Shown: positions 3,058 to 54,588 of the stretch, piece after piece | Layout of the letters: each line of letters starts with the position of its first letter | Numbering within the stretch: the stretch's first letter is position 1 | Sequence record: OP795442 | DNA: 64,000 nt | DNA from: Escherichia phage A7_1 | Reading direction: 5' to 3' (one strand) | Notes under the pieces: generated by a model | What the model was told of the DNA's origin: nothing | The model's input: only the letters and a program-made list of their open reading frames with translations | Database searches by the model: none | Made by a program: the position numbers and the translations under genes

Positions 3058-3675
3058 TTGCAAAACGAATCGTTCAGTGTTAAAATAAATATCACGGGAG
3101 CAATGATGGAAAACATTACTATCTCCGACCTTCCTTCACAAACCTATCTGTCCCGAATCCAAAAGGGACGGGCTGTGAAAAAGGCCAATGAGCTACTTAA
3201 ACAGGGCTTCAATAAAGAGGCTTCTATTTCTGGAGCCATTGGCTCCGTTCTTGTCCAAAAAGCTGCACAGAAAGAAGAGATGATTTCTTACGAGATCATT
3301 TACGAACCTGATACGCCGGATGCTCATGGACAATGGATGAGCAAAGAGACACTAGTTAAAGCACAACAAGATTTCAAGAAAGCTCAAGAAATCGGTGCGG
3401 TAACTGAGAACTTGTACCACTTGGTTGATACCGAAGCATTCAAGATCGTAGATCATTGGATTCAGCCAGAAATTGATGTAACTGTCACACAAACAGGAGA
3501 AATCATAAAAGCAGGATCATGGGTAGCAAAGGTTCAATATTCACCTGAAGCATGGGAGTTAAAGAAAGCTGGCATCGTCGGTGGATTATCTCTTCAGTGC
3601 GGTGGTATGTTGAATGAGGAAACAAATGAGCTATCCGATCTTGATTTCAGTATCGAATTGGAAGAGGAAGAATAA
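3058..3675 (+). CDS. head morphogenesis protein (possible prohead protease)
   Basis: ORF between portal and scaffold, the protease slot in lambda-like head gene order. No catalytic motif recognised. Start ambiguous (TTG 3058 or ATG 3103/3106 after GGGAG). Confidence 0.45.
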   Translation: MQNESFSVKINITGAMMENITISDLPSQTYLSRIQKGRAVKKANELLKQGFNKEASISGAIGSVLVQKAAQKEEMISYEIIYEPDTPDAHGQWMSKETLVKAQQDFKKAQEIGAVTENLYHLVDTEAFKIVDHWIQPEIDVTVTQTGEIIKAGSWVAKVQYSPEAWELKKAGIVGGLSLQCGGMLNEETNELSDLDFSIELEEEE

Positions 3676-4769
3676 TGATTAAGACCCTTATAGAGAAAGG
3701 TCGCCAGATTAAATCTCGCGGAATTGCTCTAACTCACCGAGATCAAGGCTACAGTGCGAATAACCGCCACGTAAGCCTCCTCACTAAATCTGACATTGAC
3801 CCTAGCAAACTTACGGTTGATGTTATCAAAGCCCTTGAGCAAGTTCAAGTAACTATCAGTATGGAAGAGTTTTTACGTCGCTTCTTCCACATGTATTGTG
3901 ATGATGCTGAGTTACTTACTAAGCTGCTGGGCTTCACAACTACCTTCGAAGACGAATATGCTGATAAAGATCCTGAAGACTTGGATTCTTATACGGCTGA
4001 TTACATCCGTCGTCATCAAGAATATCTCGATGAGAAGCTTGAAACAATCACTATCATCAAGAAAGCAAAAGAAGGTGCTGACCTTTCTCTCGTTGAACGC
4101 TTCGAGTTAATTAAGACTCGCAAGCAGTTTGAAGACGGATGTAAAGAATTGGGCCTTGACTTTGGTGACAATTCAGAATTACGCAAACCAGAAACTGGTG
4201 AAGTAGTTAAATCAGCTACTAAGCCTGAACCTGTAAGCTCCGCTGGAGCGACCACAACCATCAAGGAGACTCCTGTGGAAAAAGAAGTAGATGTAACCAA
4301 GTCCCAACAATTCATTGATCTGATGAAAGCTAATGAAGCGTTGATGGCTCAGGTTGAAGGTATGAAAGAAACCTTCACCGCTGCTCAAGAAATCGTTAAA
4401 GCTCAGGCTGTTGCAAAACGTGAAGTTGCCTTGAACAAAGCTGCAAGTTTTGGTTTTGTTGCTGATGACCAACGTGAAGCTGTTGCTGACCTGATCGAAG
4501 ACCCAGCTAAAGCATCTGTTGTTGCTGTGCTGGAAAAAGCTGCTGCTGCTCTTAAAGAGAAAGACGAAGCTCTCGTCGCTAAAGATGCAGAAATCGAAGA
4601 GATCAAAAAATCCTTCGCTGACGGCAAAGAAGTAGGTGCTGATGGTCAACTGACTGAAGTTGCTAAAGGCTCTGAAGACGCTCAGGCTCGTTTGAACCGA
4701 GTAATCGCAGAACGTGCAGCAGAGATCGCTAAGGCTGCTAACGGCAATGCTGAATTTATTAACGCCTAA
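3675..4769 (+). CDS. scaffolding protein
   Basis: 364 aa, Ala/Glu/Lys-rich with helical low-complexity C-terminal half; start overlaps upstream stop (ATGA); lies just upstream of capsid genes. Confidence 0.6.
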   Translation: MIKTLIEKGRQIKSRGIALTHRDQGYSANNRHVSLLTKSDIDPSKLTVDVIKALEQVQVTISMEEFLRRFFHMYCDDAELLTKLLGFTTTFEDEYADKDPEDLDSYTADYIRRHQEYLDEKLETITIIKKAKEGADLSLVERFELIKTRKQFEDGCKELGLDFGDNSELRKPETGEVVKSATKPEPVSSAGATTTIKETPVEKEVDVTKSQQFIDLMKANEALMAQVEGMKETFTAAQEIVKAQAVAKREVALNKAASFGFVADDQREAVADLIEDPAKASVVAVLEKAAAALKEKDEALVAKDAEIEEIKKSFADGKEVGADGQLTEVAKGSEDAQARLNRVIAERAAEIAKAANGNAEFINA

Positions 4770-40582: not shown

Positions 40583-40960
40583 CTATACTCCAAATGTGGA
40601 TTTGATTTCAGCAATAACCTCATGCACATTGTTTTCGTTTACTTCAAATGTGTAGGACGTTGGTTTAAGGAACGTCTGAGGTGAAACATTAACAAAGAAT
40701 TCAAATTCATCATCAAAAATTTCAAAGTATTTTCCCGGTGTTGATTCTTGACTTTTGAAAACAGTACCATCTTCCATAGTAACAGAAGAAACAGATTTTT
40801 CACCAAGGGTGTATGTTTTTAACTCATCAACAACGAAACTAGGACCGTGACGACGTAGTATTTCAACCATAGTTCGGTTGGCCCCGCAAATACCTGTCCG
40901 CTTAATAAATAACTCTTCACACCGAGGATTGAGAATATAAGTTTTTCCTACTTGCATCAT
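40583..40960 (-). CDS. tandem paralog family member 3
   Basis: 125 aa; shares MxxGKTYxLN, HGPxFVV, EDGxxG and C-terminal IKSTFxx with the two adjacent ORFs. Confidence 0.55.
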   Translation of the reverse strand: MMQVGKTYILNPRCEELFIKRTGICGANRTMVEILRRHGPSFVVDELKTYTLGEKSVSSVTMEDGTVFKSQESTPGKYFEIFDDEFEFFVNVSPQTFLKPTSYTFEVNENNVHEVIAEIKSTFGV

Positions 40961-40970
40961 AACAACCCCC

Positions 40971-41330
40971 TTAGGATAAGTTAAATGTGGATTTGATCAG
41001 GTCGATAGTTTCTTGTGCGTTTTGCTCAGATACTGACACCTGGATAATTTTAAGATCACTGACCTCTTCGAAGTATTTGAACTCAGATTCACGAAGTTCA
41101 AAGTACATTGCCCCACAGCCCACACTGAATGAATCACACCCTACAGCACCATCTTCTGTTGTGATGTTATTAACATACTCATCACCTTCGATCATACTCA
41201 TGTTATTAACAATAAATCGCGGCCCGTGCTCATCCAGAAAAGAAACAATCTCGTGATTGTAACTTGGGTCAGCCTTAATAAATTCTTCCACGAATTTTGG
41301 ATTAAGTTTATAAGTTTTACCTACTTCCAT
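40971..41330 (-). CDS. tandem paralog family member 2
   Basis: 119 aa; same conserved blocks as 40583-40960 and 41342-41716. Confidence 0.55.
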   Translation of the reverse strand: MEVGKTYKLNPKFVEEFIKADPSYNHEIVSFLDEHGPRFIVNNMSMIEGDEYVNNITTEDGAVGCDSFSVGCGAMYFELRESEFKYFEEVSDLKIIQVSVSEQNAQETIDLIKSTFNLS

Positions 41331-41341
41331 CTTTGTTCTCC

Positions 41342-41716
41342 TTACGCCAGGTTAAAGGTAGCTTTAATCAAATCTAAAGTTTCTTGTGCATTACTACGAG
41401 AGACGGCAACCTGAATAATAACAGGGTCTTCATCTTCCCCGACTTCTTTGAAGAAGGGAAATTCACTCTCTGCAAGTTCAAAGTATACACACTTGTTACC
41501 TTCGCAGTCGTGAAAAACGTCACTACCTAAAGTACCATCTTCAAATATGACATTGTTAACATATGCAACATTATCATAGAAGTGGGTGGTGTTGACAACA
41601 AATTTAGGACCGTGCTTATAAATAAGGTCAACCAATTCTTGATTGTAGCTAGGGTCCATATTGATAAAAGCTTTTTCTAAGTCTTTATTAAGAATGTAAG
41701 TTTTTCCGATTTCCAT
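41342..41716 (-). CDS. tandem paralog family member 1
   Basis: 124 aa; same conserved blocks (MEIGKTYILN...HGPKFVV...EDGTLG...LIKATFNLA). Confidence 0.55.
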   Translation of the reverse strand: MEIGKTYILNKDLEKAFINMDPSYNQELVDLIYKHGPKFVVNTTHFYDNVAYVNNVIFEDGTLGSDVFHDCEGNKCVYFELAESEFPFFKEVGEDEDPVIIQVAVSRSNAQETLDLIKATFNLA

Positions 41717-41736
41717 CTTTGCTCTCCTCTTATTTG

Positions 41737-41913
41737 TTGATGAATTGGCTAAGGATTTCGATAAGATCTTTAGCTTGTTTCTTGTCGAGAATCACGCTGT
41801 CTCCTGCATGGCAGATTTCAATAACATCCTCTTCTGCATGATATTCAACTTCCTTTGCATGAAAATCTTCAGTTTCTTTAATCACTTTTACAATGCGCTG
41901 TGTCATCTTGTTT
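41737..41913 (-). CDS. small hypothetical protein (58 aa, not in ORF track)
   Basis: Minus-strand ORF MTQRIVKVIKETEDFHAKEVEYHAEEDVIEICHAGDSVILDKKQAKDLIEILSQFINK with upstream GGGAGAG; fills an otherwise empty gap. Confidence 0.3.
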
Positions 41914-42016
41914 CTCTCCCTTTCTCTCTTTCATCGTTTAGTTTCGATAAGGTGATAGTACATCAACTAACCAATTATTATTTAGCAATTAGTGCTAAAC
42001 GCCATAATCAATCTTA

Positions 42017-42259
42017 TTAATTTTCATTTAATACCCTTAGTGCTCTCTTTTCACAAATATCCCTGAGCCTGATTACCTCTCCTATTAGATAGGAAATAGC
42101 CTTAGCTTGTACTGGTTCATCGTAATCCCCAACCGTCCCAAACACTTCATCGAGAGATAGGAAGAACTCTGAAGAGTAAATACTGTTTTGATCTTCTATA
42201 GCACGGTCTGCATTAAATTTAATATCTTCCAGGGCGCTATTACTGATATTCATAGTCAA
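42017..42259 (-). CDS. hypothetical protein
   Basis: 80 aa; start overlaps the upstream stop (ATGA). Confidence 0.45.
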   Translation of the reverse strand: MTMNISNSALEDIKFNADRAIEDQNSIYSSEFFLSLDEVFGTVGDYDEPVQAKAISYLIGEVIRLRDICEKRALRVLNEN

Positions 42260-42681
42260 ACTCCATAATCTATCTTAACAAGCTTCCCTTTGTAGTATCC
42301 AAAGTTTTTAGGAAATGCGTCGTACTCGAAGAAATCTCGGTCAAGGGTTCTATCTTTATCGTTATCAATCTCATCATAAAGTTTTTGTAGATCAGCTGTA
42401 AATAATTCCTTATTCTCTACTGATTTAGCCTTGTGCATCACAACCATAAGTCCGAATCTGTTTGAGTAAGCTATTGGGCATAGATGCGGGTTATTATACC
42501 CTTTCCACTGACCCTCTGTCATATTGCTGAGCATTCCCTGAACAAACGCCTTCCATGAATTAAATCTTGGGAACTTAATCGCATACTTGTTTGTGATTAT
42601 GACAATTCTCGTCCCACCACTCCTGTTTATCTGCATCTTAATATCTCCAGACCTCGTTACTTGTTTCGATGAGGGCATCAT
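42256..42681 (-). CDS. hypothetical protein with weak kinase-like motifs
   Basis: 141 aa; contains KYAIKFP (reminiscent of a kinase VAIK beta3 lysine) and C-terminal KIDYG (DFG-like). Too short for a full kinase; call is tentative. Confidence 0.45.
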   Translation of the reverse strand: MMPSSKQVTRSGDIKMQINRSGGTRIVIITNKYAIKFPRFNSWKAFVQGMLSNMTEGQWKGYNNPHLCPIAYSNRFGLMVVMHKAKSVENKELFTADLQKLYDEIDNDKDRTLDRDFFEYDAFPKNFGYYKGKLVKIDYGV

Positions 42682-42718
42682 ACCAGAATGAATCTGTGTG
42701 TCAACACTTTTTATTCAG

Positions 42719-42748
42719 ATAATAAAAAACCACCCCGAAGGGTGGTTT
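42719..42748 (-). terminator. rho-independent terminator (minus strand)
   Basis: Minus strand reads AACCACC-CTTCGG-GGTGGTT followed by TTTTTTATT; just downstream of the stop at 42752. Confidence 0.7.
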
Positions 42749-42751
42749 AAA

Positions 42752-43276
42752 TTAATTGCACAGGATGGTCTTTATAGCTGCATCAACTTCTGGACCTTCC
42801 TTACCGATAAAAGAAGCAAGACCCTTAAGTTTACAGGCTTCATACACTGCCCTAGCTTCTTCTTTTGTCCTGTATCTCCCAATATGTTTTTTGTTGATCT
42901 TGACCCTCCATTTCTGGCGATCTTCTTCCCAAGATATGCCTTTTCTTTTTGTCCAGTAACGATTAAGGTCACCGGAGATAAACAGGCAGGTTTCTGGTGA
43001 ATATACCTTACCGCCTTTTAAATCTTTATCAAGGCACTTCCCCTTCCAATCCTTTGTTTGCATCCACGCTTTGAAATTGCTAAACCTGAGCCACTCTTCA
43101 CAGACGGTAGTCCCCTCATAAGAGGGGTCCCTTGACAAAGCGCCCTGATCGTAACAACGTTGAAGCATACTCATCCATCGCATGTAGAATGGGCACATCT
43201 TTTCGTCTGGCCTAACATTGTAACCTGCGTCGTTTATACCCTTTCCGTAAACCATAAAAAACTCCTTATAAATCAA
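42752..43276 (-). CDS. AP2-domain DNA-binding protein (homing endonuclease-associated family)
   Basis: 174 aa; C-terminal KGISWEEDRQKWRVKINKKHIGRYRTKEEARAVYE fits the AP2 pattern (G.SW....KW...I....IG.Y....A..AY); directly downstream of the DNA polymerase. Confidence 0.5.
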   Translation of the reverse strand: MIYKEFFMVYGKGINDAGYNVRPDEKMCPFYMRWMSMLQRCYDQGALSRDPSYEGTTVCEEWLRFSNFKAWMQTKDWKGKCLDKDLKGGKVYSPETCLFISGDLNRYWTKRKGISWEEDRQKWRVKINKKHIGRYRTKEEARAVYEACKLKGLASFIGKEGPEVDAAIKTILCN

Positions 43277-43282
43277 TAACTA

Positions 43283-45937
43283 CTAATGGCACGCCCCCCA
43301 GTTCATCCCTGTGAGGTATTCTCCAGTTATCATCACTGGTGATTTCATCATCTTAGCTGCTTGTTCGACACAACGAACAACCATCTCTCCTACAGGGCAG
43401 TATGTAATAGTGAAGATACCATTTTCATCAGGATCACACTTAAACTTCCCTTCTTTCACACAATGACCATCTAAGACCATCTTCTTAGCCAAGCAAGCTT
43501 CTACAAATTTTTTCGCGTCAGCTTCGTTGTCAAAGGTCCAGGTCTTCTTGAACTTGTGTGGCACTTCAAGCTGGTATTCATCATGATAGTAAATGATACG
43601 GCGAACACCTTCATCATACCAACCTTTCTTAACCAACTGCCAGTGCAGGAGGATACCTACCAAGTCAAACAGTGCAGCACCACCATTCTGCTGATAAGCA
43701 TTAAGCAATGAGTGTTTGGAACGAGTGTAGATCTTACGTCCATCAAGACCGTAGATGAATCGCTTACCGTTAGCTTCCCAAAACTTCTCTAGTGCTTCTT
43801 TACGACCTTTCAAGCCGATGTTGCTATCCCAGAATGCGTCGATTACTGCCTGGGCCTTCTCAAGAGTGATCCCCAGCATTGATGCAATCTTCGCTGCCTG
43901 TGCCCCGTACATAATTCCGTATGTCACACCTTTACCTTCACCACGAGAAACCTTCTTCCCTGCCGCTTTGGTATACGCTTCTGCGTTTCGGGAGTGAGCA
44001 TCTCCAGATTCCATGATACGAAGATAAGCGCCACCATCGAAATCATACGCGCCCCATGCCGCGATCATACCTTCCAAGTTTGAACCGTCGATACCTACCT
44101 GATATTTACCCTCGGAGGCTCTAAACAGTTCACGCATCTCTTTACCGAGAAGAACTTTCTCATCCGGCTTAGGTACGTTTGCTACGATCGTATGCTTACG
44201 ACGACCTGTGTTAGTTATTCCACTATAACGGGCCGGAAGTTTACCGTCAACCCGTAGACGTGGATGGTTAAGCCATCCGGTATCAACCTTCTCTTCTTTC
44301 AGTGGGTCAAGAACAGATCGTCGGTTACGTAAAGACAGCCATTTAACAATCTGTTTAGCCATTTCACCATCTACTCGCTCAAGGTTAGGGCAAAGACCCT
44401 GCTGATCCTTAAGTTGTGGAGATGTTGGTAATGCACGGGCTTTCTTCCTGAAGAACTTATACATCTTCTCTTTATCTTGCCACTGCTTACCACTGATACC
44501 TAAACTTTTCAGAATCAGATCGCGATATTCAGTCTGGTCAAGATCATCAATATATTGACGAACAATGATATCGACTTCGTTATCGGGACGTTGTTTCTTA
44601 AACTGGTCCTTCGTCGCATCTTTAGTTCGCCACAATGTTGGGACCCAACCAGCATCACGAATAAGGAATTTTTTAACGTCATCCTGATTACCAATACGCA
44701 TCGGGATCATAATGTCCGGCATCTTTTGTTCTTTGATATCCATCAAAGCACGAGCCATATCTTCCGGCGGCAAAGGAACAAGCCCTTGCTGCTTAACGTT
44801 TTGTGCACGGATAAAATCACCCATTTTGGATTCATCTTCTACACCGTGTTCAACACAATACTTGATCGCGGCGGCAGTAAGAGATCCGTCAGCCTTAAAC
44901 GGCTTACTTGGTGCACCTTTAAACTCTAATGCTTCCCAATTGATATTATAACCTAACTTCTCTAACCATTTCCAACCTGTACCGGAAAGAGATCCATCAC
45001 CCTTGAAAGGCTTAGATGGGAATGTCGGTTGTGCTGATTTCGACATTTCTTTCTTCGGTAACTTAGGTTCAACCTCTAACTCAATGTCTGTCATCATCTT
45101 ATCGATACGATCACGGAGCTTGAGTGCTTTTTCTTCATCAAATGAAACACCCTGAATCTCTTGCTCAATCATCAGGTAGTCGGTCAGCATACCTCGACGC
45201 AGGGCATTCTTCCAGTTGATCATTTTAAACTTCTTCTGATCTTTGTCTGTTTCATCCTTAAACATGAAGCGTTTATCATCTGGCATGGATTCACAAGAGA
45301 TCTCTTTCATCAGAGCATCCCACACCATTTCGTTGATAATTACGTCTTCAATAATACGATCGCAATATTTCCAAAGTGGAAGGCCACGCCAATCTTCAAT
45401 CGCCACTTTCTGGTTGGCTACTCGCATACCCCAAGCTTCAAGCCCGTGAGGGCCTACAGGCTTCATTTTACCTGTGACTGGGTTCTTTACCATCTCGGGA
45501 CAACCACGAGGCAGAGGGCGATCTGGATACAATGTACGGGACATTGAAAGTGTATCGAAGATGTTTACTTGTTTACCATTAATCGTACCCATGCAACCAG
45601 GGTCTGCAAACATATCGTAAGTTGTTCCAAGCATCTTCTTAAACAACTGGAGGTCGTAGCCGAAGATGTTGTGGATAGCAATTGCTTTAGGCTCTGTGAC
45701 AAACCACTCGTTTAATTCCTCAATGGTCCGAATCTTAAAGTTTTTACCTTTAGATTGGATAAATTTAACAGCTTGATCGTAACCTTCCCGCTGGGGATCA
45801 AGAAAGATGTTCCAGTTATCTTTTTTATACTCTTTAAACAAGACGCAGTGAATCAGATCAACCTCTGTCAATAGACCATTCGCTTCCGCATCTCCAATAA
45901 ATAAGCCTTTCATTTTTTCTCCTTCTTCAAGCTCCAA
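43283..45937 (-). CDS. DNA polymerase, family A (T7 gp5 / Pol I-like) with 3'-5' exonuclease
   Basis: 884 aa; exo I motif FIGDAEANG (D.E) at N-terminus; motif B RGEGKGVTYGIMYGAQAAK and motif C YYHDEYQ. Confidence 0.9.
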   Translation of the reverse strand: MELEEGEKMKGLFIGDAEANGLLTEVDLIHCVLFKEYKKDNWNIFLDPQREGYDQAVKFIQSKGKNFKIRTIEELNEWFVTEPKAIAIHNIFGYDLQLFKKMLGTTYDMFADPGCMGTINGKQVNIFDTLSMSRTLYPDRPLPRGCPEMVKNPVTGKMKPVGPHGLEAWGMRVANQKVAIEDWRGLPLWKYCDRIIEDVIINEMVWDALMKEISCESMPDDKRFMFKDETDKDQKKFKMINWKNALRRGMLTDYLMIEQEIQGVSFDEEKALKLRDRIDKMMTDIELEVEPKLPKKEMSKSAQPTFPSKPFKGDGSLSGTGWKWLEKLGYNINWEALEFKGAPSKPFKADGSLTAAAIKYCVEHGVEDESKMGDFIRAQNVKQQGLVPLPPEDMARALMDIKEQKMPDIMIPMRIGNQDDVKKFLIRDAGWVPTLWRTKDATKDQFKKQRPDNEVDIIVRQYIDDLDQTEYRDLILKSLGISGKQWQDKEKMYKFFRKKARALPTSPQLKDQQGLCPNLERVDGEMAKQIVKWLSLRNRRSVLDPLKEEKVDTGWLNHPRLRVDGKLPARYSGITNTGRRKHTIVANVPKPDEKVLLGKEMRELFRASEGKYQVGIDGSNLEGMIAAWGAYDFDGGAYLRIMESGDAHSRNAEAYTKAAGKKVSRGEGKGVTYGIMYGAQAAKIASMLGITLEKAQAVIDAFWDSNIGLKGRKEALEKFWEANGKRFIYGLDGRKIYTRSKHSLLNAYQQNGGAALFDLVGILLHWQLVKKGWYDEGVRRIIYYHDEYQLEVPHKFKKTWTFDNEADAKKFVEACLAKKMVLDGHCVKEGKFKCDPDENGIFTITYCPVGEMVVRCVEQAAKMMKSPVMITGEYLTGMNWGACH

Positions 45938-51792: not shown

Positions 51793-52902
51793 TCAGAAAG
51801 GTGCTTCGTCGTCGAAATCTACATCTTCAACTTCCGGTACATCAGGAATGTCACCTGCGGATTCAACGATACTCTGTTGTTCCCACGTAGGTTCCTCTGA
51901 AGGTTGGTCCATTTCTTCCATAACCTTCTTGATCTCTTCCTCTTGCTCACGTAGGAAGTTATCATCCGGCTCAGGAATATCTTCCTCTTTAATATCTGAA
52001 CGAGTGAGATCACTGTTTTGTTCAGACAAAGGTTGAATCTCTGCGGCCTTAGGTTTGAAATCTGGAGAACGATGATCATCTTCTGGATGAGCGGCATACC
52101 ACTCACGAAGAGTTTCATAAGGACTCTCTAGGAAGCCCTCTGGCGGTTCCAGATAATCACCTGTATCAATGTCATAGAACACAGGGAATTTACCAGCACG
52201 ACCGTGTTTACGGTCATCCAGGATAACAAAGTAAGAAGTGTTACGTTGTTTCATCGGAAGCTCTGGATCTTTGTTACGTTCAATACCCCACATATAGTAA
52301 GTGTTTCGCATCATTGCACGGCTACCAGCAAACTGCGCCGACTGGACTTGACCACCAAATTCATGAGGCTTACCAGATTCAGGCTTGTTAAGGTGACAGA
52401 AGCAATAATAAGTAAAGCCAAGCTCTTTTGCCAGTTTGGAGATCTCATCCGAGAATCGTTCCAGTTCCTGGTTAGCTTCAGAAGCACTCATACCTTGCAC
52501 AAGACGAGTGATCGGGTCAATAAAGATATCTTCACAACCTTCTACGATCACTGCGTGACGGATAGCACCTTTCAGTTCATCCCATACTGCACGACCATAG
52601 TTGTTATAATAGATAACACTATCACCAACTTCATCAGTAGCTTTGATCAGTTCTTCTTGCTTAAAGTAGCCACGTTGACCTTCAAATACTTCATTACCCC
52701 AAATGTCACGGAAAGTTCCATCTTCTTGAGGAATCATTACCTTTTCTGCGTTAACAAAGTCTTTATGATAACGCTTACCTGCGATCTTCTTACAAGTGAT
52801 CTCGTTCTCTTCTTCAAACTTAAACACCGCAGCTTTTGACTTCTCAATACCCGTGATGTGTTCAACCATTTGGTTAAGAAGTTCAGACTTGCCCATTTTC
52901 AC
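51793..52902 (-). CDS. primase-helicase, 3' exon (gp4 / DnaB-like helicase domain; proposed exon starts near 52899)
   Basis: Begins (V)KMGKSELL, the second half of a Walker A; CHLNKPESGKPHEFGG resembles T7 gp4 CHLKNPDKGKAHEEG; acidic tail ...VDFDDEAPF. The annotated GTG start is probably intron sequence. Confidence 0.75.
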   Translation of the reverse strand: MKMGKSELLNQMVEHITGIEKSKAAVFKFEEENEITCKKIAGKRYHKDFVNAEKVMIPQEDGTFRDIWGNEVFEGQRGYFKQEELIKATDEVGDSVIYYNNYGRAVWDELKGAIRHAVIVEGCEDIFIDPITRLVQGMSASEANQELERFSDEISKLAKELGFTYYCFCHLNKPESGKPHEFGGQVQSAQFAGSRAMMRNTYYMWGIERNKDPELPMKQRNTSYFVILDDRKHGRAGKFPVFYDIDTGDYLEPPEGFLESPYETLREWYAAHPEDDHRSPDFKPKAAEIQPLSEQNSDLTRSDIKEEDIPEPDDNFLREQEEEIKKVMEEMDQPSEEPTWEQQSIVESAGDIPDVPEVEDVDFDDEAPF

Positions 52903-53652
52903 CGTTATGTTCGACAGGGTTCGCTACTCCCTGCCCGTTCTCTTACGAACTGCTACATGTCCCCATGCAGACCAGACTATATCTTCAACCTGTTTCCAGG
53001 TGCTATGCACTTCGGACCGCTTGGTCCTACTCTACTCGATTCAAGAGTCTAGCTCTTGTCTTTCGATAGTCGTTGCTCCTTCCTCTCAACCGCTTTGTAA
53101 TTTGTCTTACGGTATCTCTGTGTATCCCAAAATGCTCTGCAATTTCTTTTTGTTGAAGCGTGGTATTAATAACCATTTCGTAAACCTGCTTCTCAAAATC
53201 ATCAGCATATCTATTTGGATTTCTTCTACCGTTGGCCCAACCATGATCGACATTTTCTTTCGTGGTTGTCCATTCCAAATTAACATCGTTGTTGTTTTGC
53301 CTGTCGCTATCTTTATGATTAACAACAGGAAGGTTATGAGGGTTATCAACGTAGTGTTCAGCCACCAATTGGTGAATAAATCTACGTGTAACCTTACCAT
53401 CTTTACTTAACGAAACTCTAAGATACCCTGAACTATTGGTATCCGGTTTGAGTTTTTTAAGCTTCCGGTAAACATCTCCCCTTCGGGTAATGATGTAATT
53501 TTCAAAACCTTTTATTCTTTTCATTTCCCCCTCCTTGCAATAAACAAAGAGGTTGAGAGGCTTGGATCAGGATTACGTGTTCTACGCTTCCCCTGAGTTC
53601 ACATAGTATTTAGTCGAGGCATCTCTGCCAAGGCTGGCTAGACTTAATGTTT
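52900..53652 (-). mobile_element. putative self-splicing (group I-type) intron carrying an HNH homing endonuclease gene
   Basis: Insert between ...GAG (exon ends in U) and KMGKS (preceded by G). Candidate P1: exon GCUGGU pairs with intron GCCAGC 15 nt in. Intron has GACTAAAT and AAGATATAGTC elements. Boundaries approximate. Confidence 0.5.
53027..53524 (-). CDS. HNH homing endonuclease (intron-encoded)
   Basis: 165 aa; N-terminal GFENYIITRRGDVY (NUMOD4-like), HNH core HQLVAEHYV...NHKD...NLEWTTTKEN, C-terminal helix-turn-helix-like segment; own RBS AAGGAGGGGG. Confidence 0.8.
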   Translation of the reverse strand: MKRIKGFENYIITRRGDVYRKLKKLKPDTNSSGYLRVSLSKDGKVTRRFIHQLVAEHYVDNPHNLPVVNHKDSDRQNNNDVNLEWTTTKENVDHGWANGRRNPNRYADDFEKQVYEMVINTTLQQKEIAEHFGIHRDTVRQITKRLRGRSNDYRKTRARLLNRVE

Positions 53653-54588
53653 ACCAGCACCGATGAAGTAACCTTCACCTGGACGACGACCCAAGGTAAG
53701 CTTGGTCATGGTGGGCCAAGGGAACTTCTTGCCGAGTTTAGGGATCTCATGTGCCTTTTCGCGGAACTGTGAATAAGTCGAGAAACCATCCGGCACATAT
53801 TCCTTTGGCTTCATTGCAGCCCAAAACAACTGATCAGAAAGTCCTTTGTTATACATGTCGCAAGGGTCCATATCTTCTGGAATGTCCACGACCTTCATTT
53901 GTGGAATTACAGAGTATACCGCTGCAACTGCATCTTTACCTTTCATGATCCCTTTGGCCTTCTCTGCTTCTGTCGCACGGTCAGCATCGAAAGCTACGAT
54001 AATCTCTTCAAACTTACTCAGAAGCTTATAGTTATTCTTCTGTGATAAGTTTTGCACGGCATTGGATGTACCGTTAGAGATAGATACAACTGTGAAGTTT
54101 GGTTTACGAGTGGAACCATCCTTCGGTTTGTACTTCTCTGTCAATACCTGCCACAAGATTGCAGCATCGTATTCACCTTCAGTGATAAAGATCATACGTT
54201 TGGAAGACTTGTTTGCACCTTCCAGACCAAACATATCACAGGCTACAGATTGGAAACCGATAGTTGTAAAGTGCCCTTTCTGTTGCTTAGGGATCGTAAG
54301 ATCACGCTTTTTAAAACCTACAACCTTACCTTCCAATGTGTACGGAAAATAATGTGCTTCTGGAGTCATACCGTCTTTAGCTGACAACTTGGTACGAATA
54401 CCAAATCGTTTAGCTGTCTTTTCGTCGATACCACGCTCAGGGATACTTTTACACGGGTAAGTCAATACATCTTCAACTGTTTCTTCCACACGAGACACAC
54501 CACCACCATAATTACGTGCTACTGAAGCTTTAGGATTTTTATGTCCGAACTTATAACCGCCAAACAAACTTTCGCCAATAGTGCTCAT
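53644..54588 (-). CDS. primase-helicase, 5' exon (TOPRIM primase domain; proposed exon ends near 53653)
   Basis: TOPRIM motifs IFITEGEYDA and VAFDADRAT; C-terminus LTLGRRPGEGYFIGAG parallels the segment preceding the T7 gp4 Walker A; ORF stops 3 codons later (KH*) inside the insert. Confidence 0.75.
   Translation of the reverse strand: MSTIGESLFGGYKFGHKNPKASVARNYGGGVSRVEETVEDVLTYPCKSIPERGIDEKTAKRFGIRTKLSAKDGMTPEAHYFPYTLEGKVVGFKKRDLTIPKQQKGHFTTIGFQSVACDMFGLEGANKSSKRMIFITEGEYDAAILWQVLTEKYKPKDGSTRKPNFTVVSISNGTSNAVQNLSQKNNYKLLSKFEEIIVAFDADRATEAEKAKGIMKGKDAVAAVYSVIPQMKVVDIPEDMDPCDMYNKGLSDQLFWAAMKPKEYVPDGFSTYSQFREKAHEIPKLGKKFPWPTMTKLTLGRRPGEGYFIGAGKH

Follow-up and report, generated by a model that had tools for sequence, protein, structure and literature searches.

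The window analysed here is a stretch of 64,000 nucleotides from Escherichia phage A7_1 (A7-1; OP795442), a phage of the genus Septuagintavirus in the subfamily Vequintavirinae (PMC11370258). Its minus strand carries, at 43283-45937, a gene for a family-A DNA polymerase (Pfam entry: PF00476), the ORF of which is intact (884 aa counted from the first possible start, a TTG) and ends in a TAG stop codon at 43283..43285. The next gene on this strand, A71_158 (42752..43255), encodes a protein of 167 aa and closes with a TAA stop codon at 42752-42754. It is directly followed, again on the minus strand, by an intrinsic terminator at 42727..42748, formed by the stem-loop AAACCACCCTTCGGGGTGGTTT and a subsequent T-run. 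The protein is 100% identical to a public entry of 167 aa, A71_158 of Escherichia phage A7_1, which is annotated there as a hypothetical protein.

The initial annotation had placed an AP2-domain protein immediately downstream of the DNA polymerase, in a minus-strand ORF at 42752-43276. This ORF exists, and both of the peptide stretches quoted from it are found in its translation. Its upstream limit at 43276, a TTG, is merely the first possible start and lies 21 nt too far upstream; translation of A71_158 almost certainly starts at the ATG at 43255-43253, with the ribosome-binding site (RBS) AAGGAG 6 nt upstream of it (43262..43267, minus strand), within a leader of the sequence TATAAGGAGTTTTT. 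The distance from the polymerase stop codon to this ATG is 27 nt, so that the position immediately downstream of the polymerase stands. No promoter for A71_158 was found in these 27 nt, and the closest promoter-like site (42704-42677) belongs to the gene that follows; given the lack of a separate promoter, A71_158 is probably co-transcribed with the polymerase gene and read from its transcript. The ORF is not a chance occurrence, because it has 946 database homologues at E<=1e-3 and matches the PHROGs family phrog_953, 'HNH endonuclease', over its full length (E=4e-58). Its base composition is unremarkable (GC 0.41-0.45, like that of the polymerase gene), and a tblastn search for paralogues in the window recovered the gene itself alone.

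The C-terminal part of the protein is an AP2 DNA-binding domain of three strands and a helix (aa 103-149; 42809..42949, minus strand). The Pfam AP2 model (PF00847) matches the single sequence at aa 103-144 with 17.4 bits (E=0.0055), below the gathering score of 33.3; when 40 members of the family were scanned with a lenient cut-off of E<=1, 20 matched the same model, the best with E=8e-7. A search with the family profile recovers the solved AP2 domain of the plant protein WRI1 (7wq5; E=1.1e-5), and the AlphaFold model of A71_158 (mean pLDDT 84.7) folds aa 107-149 into three strands and a helix with pLDDT >90. As the single-sequence Pfam score is sub-threshold, we base the AP2 assignment on this profile-level and fold evidence. 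A Foldseek search of the PDB with the full-length model returned nothing significant, with the AP2 domain of PF14_0633 at E=2.4.

The AP2 domain is preceded by a second conserved domain (aa 15-104; 42944..43213, minus strand; model pLDDT 89), which consists of a helical part carrying W27, R33, C34, Y46, C52 and W55, followed by a predicted β-β-α unit (aa 73-102; 42950..43039, minus strand). In the AlphaFold model (pLDDT about 90) two strands (73-76, 91-94) and a helix (95-102) make up this unit, which is placed directly before the AP2 domain and contains a putative active site of D76-K77-D78, Y85, C90 and N98. An alignment of 40 sequences shows W27, W55, W64 and W70 to be invariant and C34, C52 and C90 to be invariant or almost so, and the conservation of Trp and Cys also holds in 156 representatives of clusters at 50% identity. 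Of the putative active site, K77 and D78 are each found in 153 of these 156 representatives, D76 in 152, Y85 in 155, C90 in 154 and N98 in 151, and 119 of the 120 close homologues retain the DKD motif. No conserved His is present in the domain in the 40-sequence, the 120-homologue or the 156-representative set. Besides C90, the cysteines C21 (141/156), C34 (152/156) and C52 (131/156), all encoded at about 43195-42986 of the window, are widely kept, and these four could bind a structural zinc ion, a feature of many HNH enzymes.

This combination of domains is that of the IPA-HNH homing endonuclease genes (HEGs), which Barth, Dunham and Seed (2023) defined from gp59, gp115/116 and gp209 of Vibrio phage ICP1 by a divergent N-terminal HNH and a C-terminal AP2 domain; 240 phages were reported to carry 431 of these genes, 29% of which stand beside DNA polymerase genes (PMC10448857). 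A BLASTP comparison of A71_158 with ICP1 gp59 gives E=1e-14, with 33% identity over 117 aa. The motifs WxxMLxRCY (WxxMLQRCY in the comparison with gp59), VCEEW, LDKD, (K)VYxPExC and a following N are common to A71_158, gp59 and ORF209 of ICP1, the last of which aligns with the LDKD...Y..C...N motifs. Judged by these sequence relationships, A71_158 is a member of the IPA-HNH family, located at the site most typical of that family. A profile search with the N-terminal domain against 1.84 billion cluster representatives yielded 26,998 proteins at E<=1e-3, of which 8,768 reach E<=1e-10; the family is thus very large (about 27,000 clusters at 50% identity), and it is without a Pfam model or a solved structure. 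We found no biochemical test of any IPA-HNH protein in the searchable literature. Several claims made from the single sequence can be judged at this point. The C-terminal AP2 pattern is backed by the family profile, the WRI1 match and the predicted fold, and the conserved N-terminal Cys and Trp positions are real in both alignments. The profile search proposed for the N-terminal domain leads to PHROG families annotated as HNH endonucleases and to the IPA-HNH family. The suggested homing-endonuclease type holds through the homology to gp59, with nuclease activity as a probable property of a domain that has a Lys for the His of canonical HNH enzymes.

Comparison with related phages delimits a cassette of about 530 nt at 42755..43286 (a segment to which no strand is assigned), the 5' boundary of which is the TAG of the polymerase gene. 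It is absent from A5-4, UPEC06, W70 and LTH01. In UPEC06 and LTH01 its place is taken by 4 nt, and the terminator stands 4 nt after the polymerase stop codon; A5-4 and W70 lack the cassette with slightly different limits. A5-4, which belongs to the same species as A7-1 and comes from the same farm, is 97% identical to the window up to 42755 and from 43314 onwards, with 38 nt between these points as against 558 in the window. The terminator at 42727-42748 is common to the cassette-less relatives and is there directly 3' of the polymerase stop codon (UPEC06, A5-4). The phages CR3 and PcCB7V also lack the cassette and have an unrelated Laminin_G_3 gene in its place. The Certrevirus Pectobacterium phage P7_Pc has an orthologue that occupies the same junction and is followed by the same terminator (74.6% aa identity; annotated as 'putative restriction endonuclease'), and so do the metagenomic phages L005 and L004 (72% and 62%). 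More distant homologues, with 42-48% identity, likewise follow the polymerase gene directly in the Mydovirus KpS8 and in the Justusliebigvirus phages alia and PaulScherrer, and some genomes hold several IPA-HNH copies. The presence/absence polymorphism that the initial annotation proposed to look for beside the polymerase gene is confirmed by these comparisons, and it is precise.

The far side of the terminator is variable as well. A7-1 and A5-4 have in common a block of about 970 nt (41732-42698) that UPEC06, W70 and LTH01 lack; its three small ORFs (41730-41906, 42017-42259 and 42256-42681) gave no confident Pfam match. The block lies directly beyond the cassette terminator, and two variable segments thus abut at that terminator. 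Beyond this block, at 40583-41716, are three tandem paralogous genes of 125, 119 and 124 aa, the products of which all start with M-x-x-GKTY; the third (41342-41716), which was the only one scanned, matches the Pfam family FRD2 (bacteriophage FRD2 protein) with E=1.3e-18.

We consider it likely that A71_158 is a free-standing IPA-HNH HEG, which combines a divergent HNH-like nuclease domain with an AP2 domain and is lodged after the polymerase stop codon and ahead of the terminator. We infer nuclease activity, a target site and active homing for this protein along the following lines. The cassette is self-contained, with its own leader, RBS and ORF. When A7-1 co-infects a cell with a cassette-less relative, the AP2 domain would bind a specific site at or near the conserved polymerase 3' end and the junction of the latter with the terminator. 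The β-β-α unit would then nick or cut that site, with D76 and N98 holding the metal ion and K77 and/or Y85 standing in for the usual His. Recombinational repair from the cassette-bearing genome would finally copy the gene, along with short flanking stretches of the polymerase gene, into the recipient. The compared polymerases all end in ...W-x-x-C/S-H-stop, and this shared end is a plausible candidate for the recognition region.

The proposed catalytic role of the β-β-α unit depends on how its conserved residues are read. Without any gap, D76, K77, Y85 and N98 fall on (D/N)69, H70, N78 and N91 of the HNH_3 alignment, an equivalence that is positional and not structural. The metal-ligand positions before the His and in the helix are kept (D76 and N98, at the spacing of N-or-D69 and N91), and the position of the catalytic His, the general base at the end of strand 1, holds a Lys, K77. 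On this defining feature the IPA-HNH domain fails as a canonical HNH domain. Replacement of the general base by Lys is what might be seen if A71_158 were a domesticated or catalytically dead relative of the HEGs, one that merely binds DNA through its AP2 domain and serves as a regulator or exclusion factor, for instance as a repressor around the replication genes. Its place in the polymerase operon is in keeping with such a role, as is the treatment of two of the three His-less groups in a survey of His-Me finger proteins as having lost nuclease function (PMC5714182); moreover, endonuclease-derived DNA-binding proteins have been co-opted elsewhere, e.g. CapR and the plant AP2 factors (PMC10448857). 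However, the Lys is fixed across the family (153/156) together with D76, D78, Y85 and N98, which is the pattern of a working active site and not of relaxed selection, and PacI offers a precedent of an active β-β-α nuclease that has dispensed with the His by means of a loop Tyr (PMC5714182). The IPA-HNH genes also behave as mobile DNA, with several copies in some genomes, a precise insertion or deletion between strains of one species and, as discussed below, transfer between lineages with very different polymerases. We therefore regard a purely DNA-binding A71_158 as unlikely.

The sequences around the insertion bear on whether the cassette has moved. An alignment with A5-4, UPEC06, W70 and LTH01 shows the 3' end of the polymerase gene (43283..43424, minus strand) to be mosaic: 43283-43313 is unalignable with A5-4 and identical to UPEC06, and 43322-43424 has 27 mismatches to UPEC06, W70 and LTH01 as against none to A5-4. 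These patches lie within 150 nt of the cassette insertion. The flanks of the junction match the cassette-less UPEC06, with no sign of a long tract co-converted from a foreign donor. The leader TATAAGGAGTTTTT before the ATG is conserved in PaulScherrer, alia, L004, L005 and P7_Pc; it has one coding-strand occurrence in the window, hence it is not a generic RBS context of A7-1, and from its distribution it appears to travel with the cassette. The identities of polymerase and endonuclease to those of A7-1 are, respectively, 85% and 75% in P7_Pc, 82% and 72% in L005, 64% and 48% in KpS8, and 49% and 33% in ICP1; in alia the polymerase is 26% identical, yet the endonuclease 42%. The manner in which the endonuclease tracks the polymerase in the first four phages fits long vertical inheritance with repeated loss too. 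Along with the shared post-polymerase position in these four and the match of the cassette flanks to UPEC06, it speaks for an ordinary accessory gene that was ancestrally located after the polymerase gene, was deleted in most relatives and does not home at present. Such a history would nevertheless need the identical base-precise deletion, restoring the order of stop codon and then terminator, in several lineages, and it leaves unexplained the copies of alia and PaulScherrer (42-44% identical, with polymerases at 26%), the conservation of the leader with the cassette and the mosaic patches at the polymerase 3' end; we hold it to be improbable.

Direct comparisons did not establish homology of the N-terminal domain to HNH enzymes. 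Neither A71_158 nor the 40 family members show sequence-profile homology to an HNH family (PF13392 HNH_3 or PF01844), and a Pfam scan of the first 100 residues matched no family in any of these 40. No NCBIfam family matches A71_158, and searches of the PDB by sequence, with the single sequence and with the N-terminal profile, gave spurious matches only (KDPG aldolase and deoxycytidine kinase). In hhalign comparisons with an HNH_3 alignment derived from the intron HNH protein of the window, the N-terminal profile scored a probability of about 0.1%, both in its 40-sequence and in its 156-sequence version, and with this repeated negative we do not claim HNH membership on sequence grounds. The N-terminal domain of the IPA-HNH proteins was previously called HNH by HHsearch and is too divergent for the Pfam HNH_3 model (PMC10448857); the HHsearch matches were not reproduced here. 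A Foldseek search of the PDB with the isolated domain ranks the HNH enzyme PacI first, at a non-significant E=1.0 and TM 0.48, and the HNH enzyme colicin E9 sixth, a weak match at E=7. Against predicted viral structures, 91-98 columns are aligned with small genuine HNH-AP2 endonucleases (Anath, Phieco32 and PP90), which is more than the AP2 domain alone can supply. That this domain is instead an enzyme or DNA-binding fold unrelated to HNH, for which the label would be a misnomer even if it were a nuclease of another type, would agree with the two hhalign probabilities below 1% and with the lack of Pfam, PDB sequence and significant PDB Foldseek matches, but it is improbable in view of the modelled β-β-α unit, which adjoins the AP2 domain in the order of canonical HNH-AP2 proteins, the gap-free positional fit to N-or-D69/H70/N78/N91, the 91-98 columns shared with the viral HNH-AP2 endonucleases, the presence of PacI and colicin E9 among the weak top PDB matches and the HHsearch matches to HNH reported by Barth et al. 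(PMC10448857).

A reading of 'DKD' as a PD-(D/E)xK motif was also considered and rejected, as the motif order and the predicted β-β-α topology do not fit. The domain is most likely a β-β-α nuclease with a catalytic residue other than His. The possibly new point in this reading is the near-invariant Lys where the catalytic His is expected, in the order D-K-D, then Tyr, then Asn. More tentatively, and with somewhat less than even confidence, we propose that the IPA-HNH proteins are an unrecognised His-less branch of the β-β-α-metal nucleases, in which K77 and/or the loop Tyr Y85 (as in PacI) replaces the His, and also that the sub-lineage of A71_158 uses, as a specialised landing site, the C-terminal codons that nearly all family-A polymerase genes share (...W-x-x-C/S-H-stop). 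If this were true, landing on these codons would let the sub-lineage hop among phage subfamilies whose polymerases are 26% identical. The sole wider interest of A71_158 is biochemical: a family that seemingly goes without its namesake His yet strictly keeps the D-K-D/Y/N constellation.

Endonuclease genes also occur elsewhere in the replication module. In the window, an insertion of about 740 nt (52903-53643) separates the Toprim part (53644-54588) of the primase/helicase gene from its DnaB_C part (51793-52902); this insertion holds a minus-strand ORF with HNH_3 and HTH domains (53027-53524). The Rfam group I intron model matches 52953-53143 weakly, with 24.9 bits (E=5.8e-4) against a gathering score of 50. 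UPEC06 has an ORF 85% identical to this HNH_3+HTH ORF. In A5-4, W70 and LTH01 an insertion of about 770 nt with an HNH_3 ORF is located inside the polymerase gene, at the point corresponding to 43582/43583 of the window; that of A5-4 (L001 3565-4336) reaches 42.9 bits with the same Rfam model (E=2.3e-9), which again falls short of the gathering score. The window and UPEC06 carry the uninterrupted polymerase allele at this point, and next to it, at 43586-43607, the window differs by seven substitutions from the three insertion-carrying genomes and by none of these seven from UPEC06. The intron HNH gene of the initial annotation is thus present as an ORF splitting the primase/helicase gene, with a group I intron match that is sub-threshold. 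Its suggestion that the replication module is a target of selfish endonuclease genes agrees with the probable HEG after the polymerase, the HNH insertion in primase/helicase and, in A5-4, W70 and LTH01, that in the polymerase.

The relation of A71_158 to these insertions was examined in three ways. An intron- or intein-encoded HEG is rejected for A71_158 itself, as the polymerase ORF is intact and A71_158 stands after its stop codon; the window gave no Rfam match at the gathering score, and there is no intron signal around the gene. A54_275, the ORF in the A5-4 polymerase insertion, was considered as a moved relative of A71_158 and rejected, being a standard HNH_3 protein with no similarity to it. 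A mutual exclusion between polymerase intron and post-polymerase gene holds in the five genomes examined from this clade (A7-1, A5-4, UPEC06, W70 and LTH01) and fails in L004 (ERZ27239200, 1374-5510), where a polymerase gene in three pieces is followed by an IPA-HNH gene. The insertions in this polymerase gene are at 3369-4081 (with a 149-aa ORF) and 4415-4671, and their presence together with the IPA-HNH gene means that polymerase insertions and the post-polymerase gene can coexist.

The paper describing the genus took the pieces of the A5-4 polymerase for 'additional DNA polymerases' and makes no mention of homing, HNH or introns (PMC11370258). The difference between A7-1 and A5-4 in the polymerase region is now explained by a probable HEG after the polymerase gene in the former and, in the latter, by a probable group I intron that contains an HNH gene, and the label 'hypothetical protein' of A71_158 can be replaced by a specific identity. 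The locus provides one more example of nuclease genes marking the boundaries of genetic exchange in phages. A7-1 and A5-4 form a natural pair with the same laboratory host, which makes them convenient for work on activity and homing.

Among known systems, the free-standing HEGs of the Seg and Mob types in T4-like phages are small, lie between essential genes, are variably present in close relatives and are accompanied by local recombination mosaics (discussed in PMC10448857). A71_158 resembles them as a small gene between essential genes, with variable presence and mosaic flanks; unlike it, they are GIY-YIG proteins or HNH_3 proteins with a zinc finger, have other DNA-binding domains and are non-homologous. 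The canonical HNH(HNH_3)-AP2 homing endonucleases, with an I-HmuI-type HNH_3, are described from phages, cyanobacteria and ciliates (Magnani et al. 2004, as cited in PMC10448857 and in PMC5714182, group 2). They share with A71_158 a nuclease unit (a putative one in A71_158) directly before the AP2 domain, the β-β-α topology, which in A71_158 is predicted, and an equal motif spacing (H70/N78/N91 as against K77/Y85/N98). A71_158 differs from them in having Lys for His and Tyr for the middle Asn, in escaping detection by the Pfam HNH_3 model and by hhalign, and in the extra helical, Cys/Trp-rich segment that precedes its β-β-α unit. PacI (PDB 3ldy/3m7k; His-Me finger group 20) is without a catalytic His and uses a Tyr in the inter-strand loop instead (PMC5714182). 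It is a small β-β-α nuclease, as A71_158 is predicted to be, and the invariant Y85 of the IPA-HNH proteins lies in the equivalent loop; in contrast to A71_158, with which it has no sequence similarity, it is without an AP2 domain and is a restriction enzyme rather than a mobile phage gene. ICP1 gp59 is free-standing like A71_158, has a homologous N-terminal domain and a C-terminal AP2 domain, and its gene comes straight after that of a family-A DNA polymerase of the rV5 type. The two differ in length (272 aa in gp59 versus 167), gp59 alone having an N-terminal extension of about 85 aa, and A71_158 comes from a Septuagintavirus coliphage that is absent from the discussion in the paper on the IPA-HNH family (PMC10448857). 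A71_158 is a further case of a known kind, and an ordinary one for a large lytic phage.
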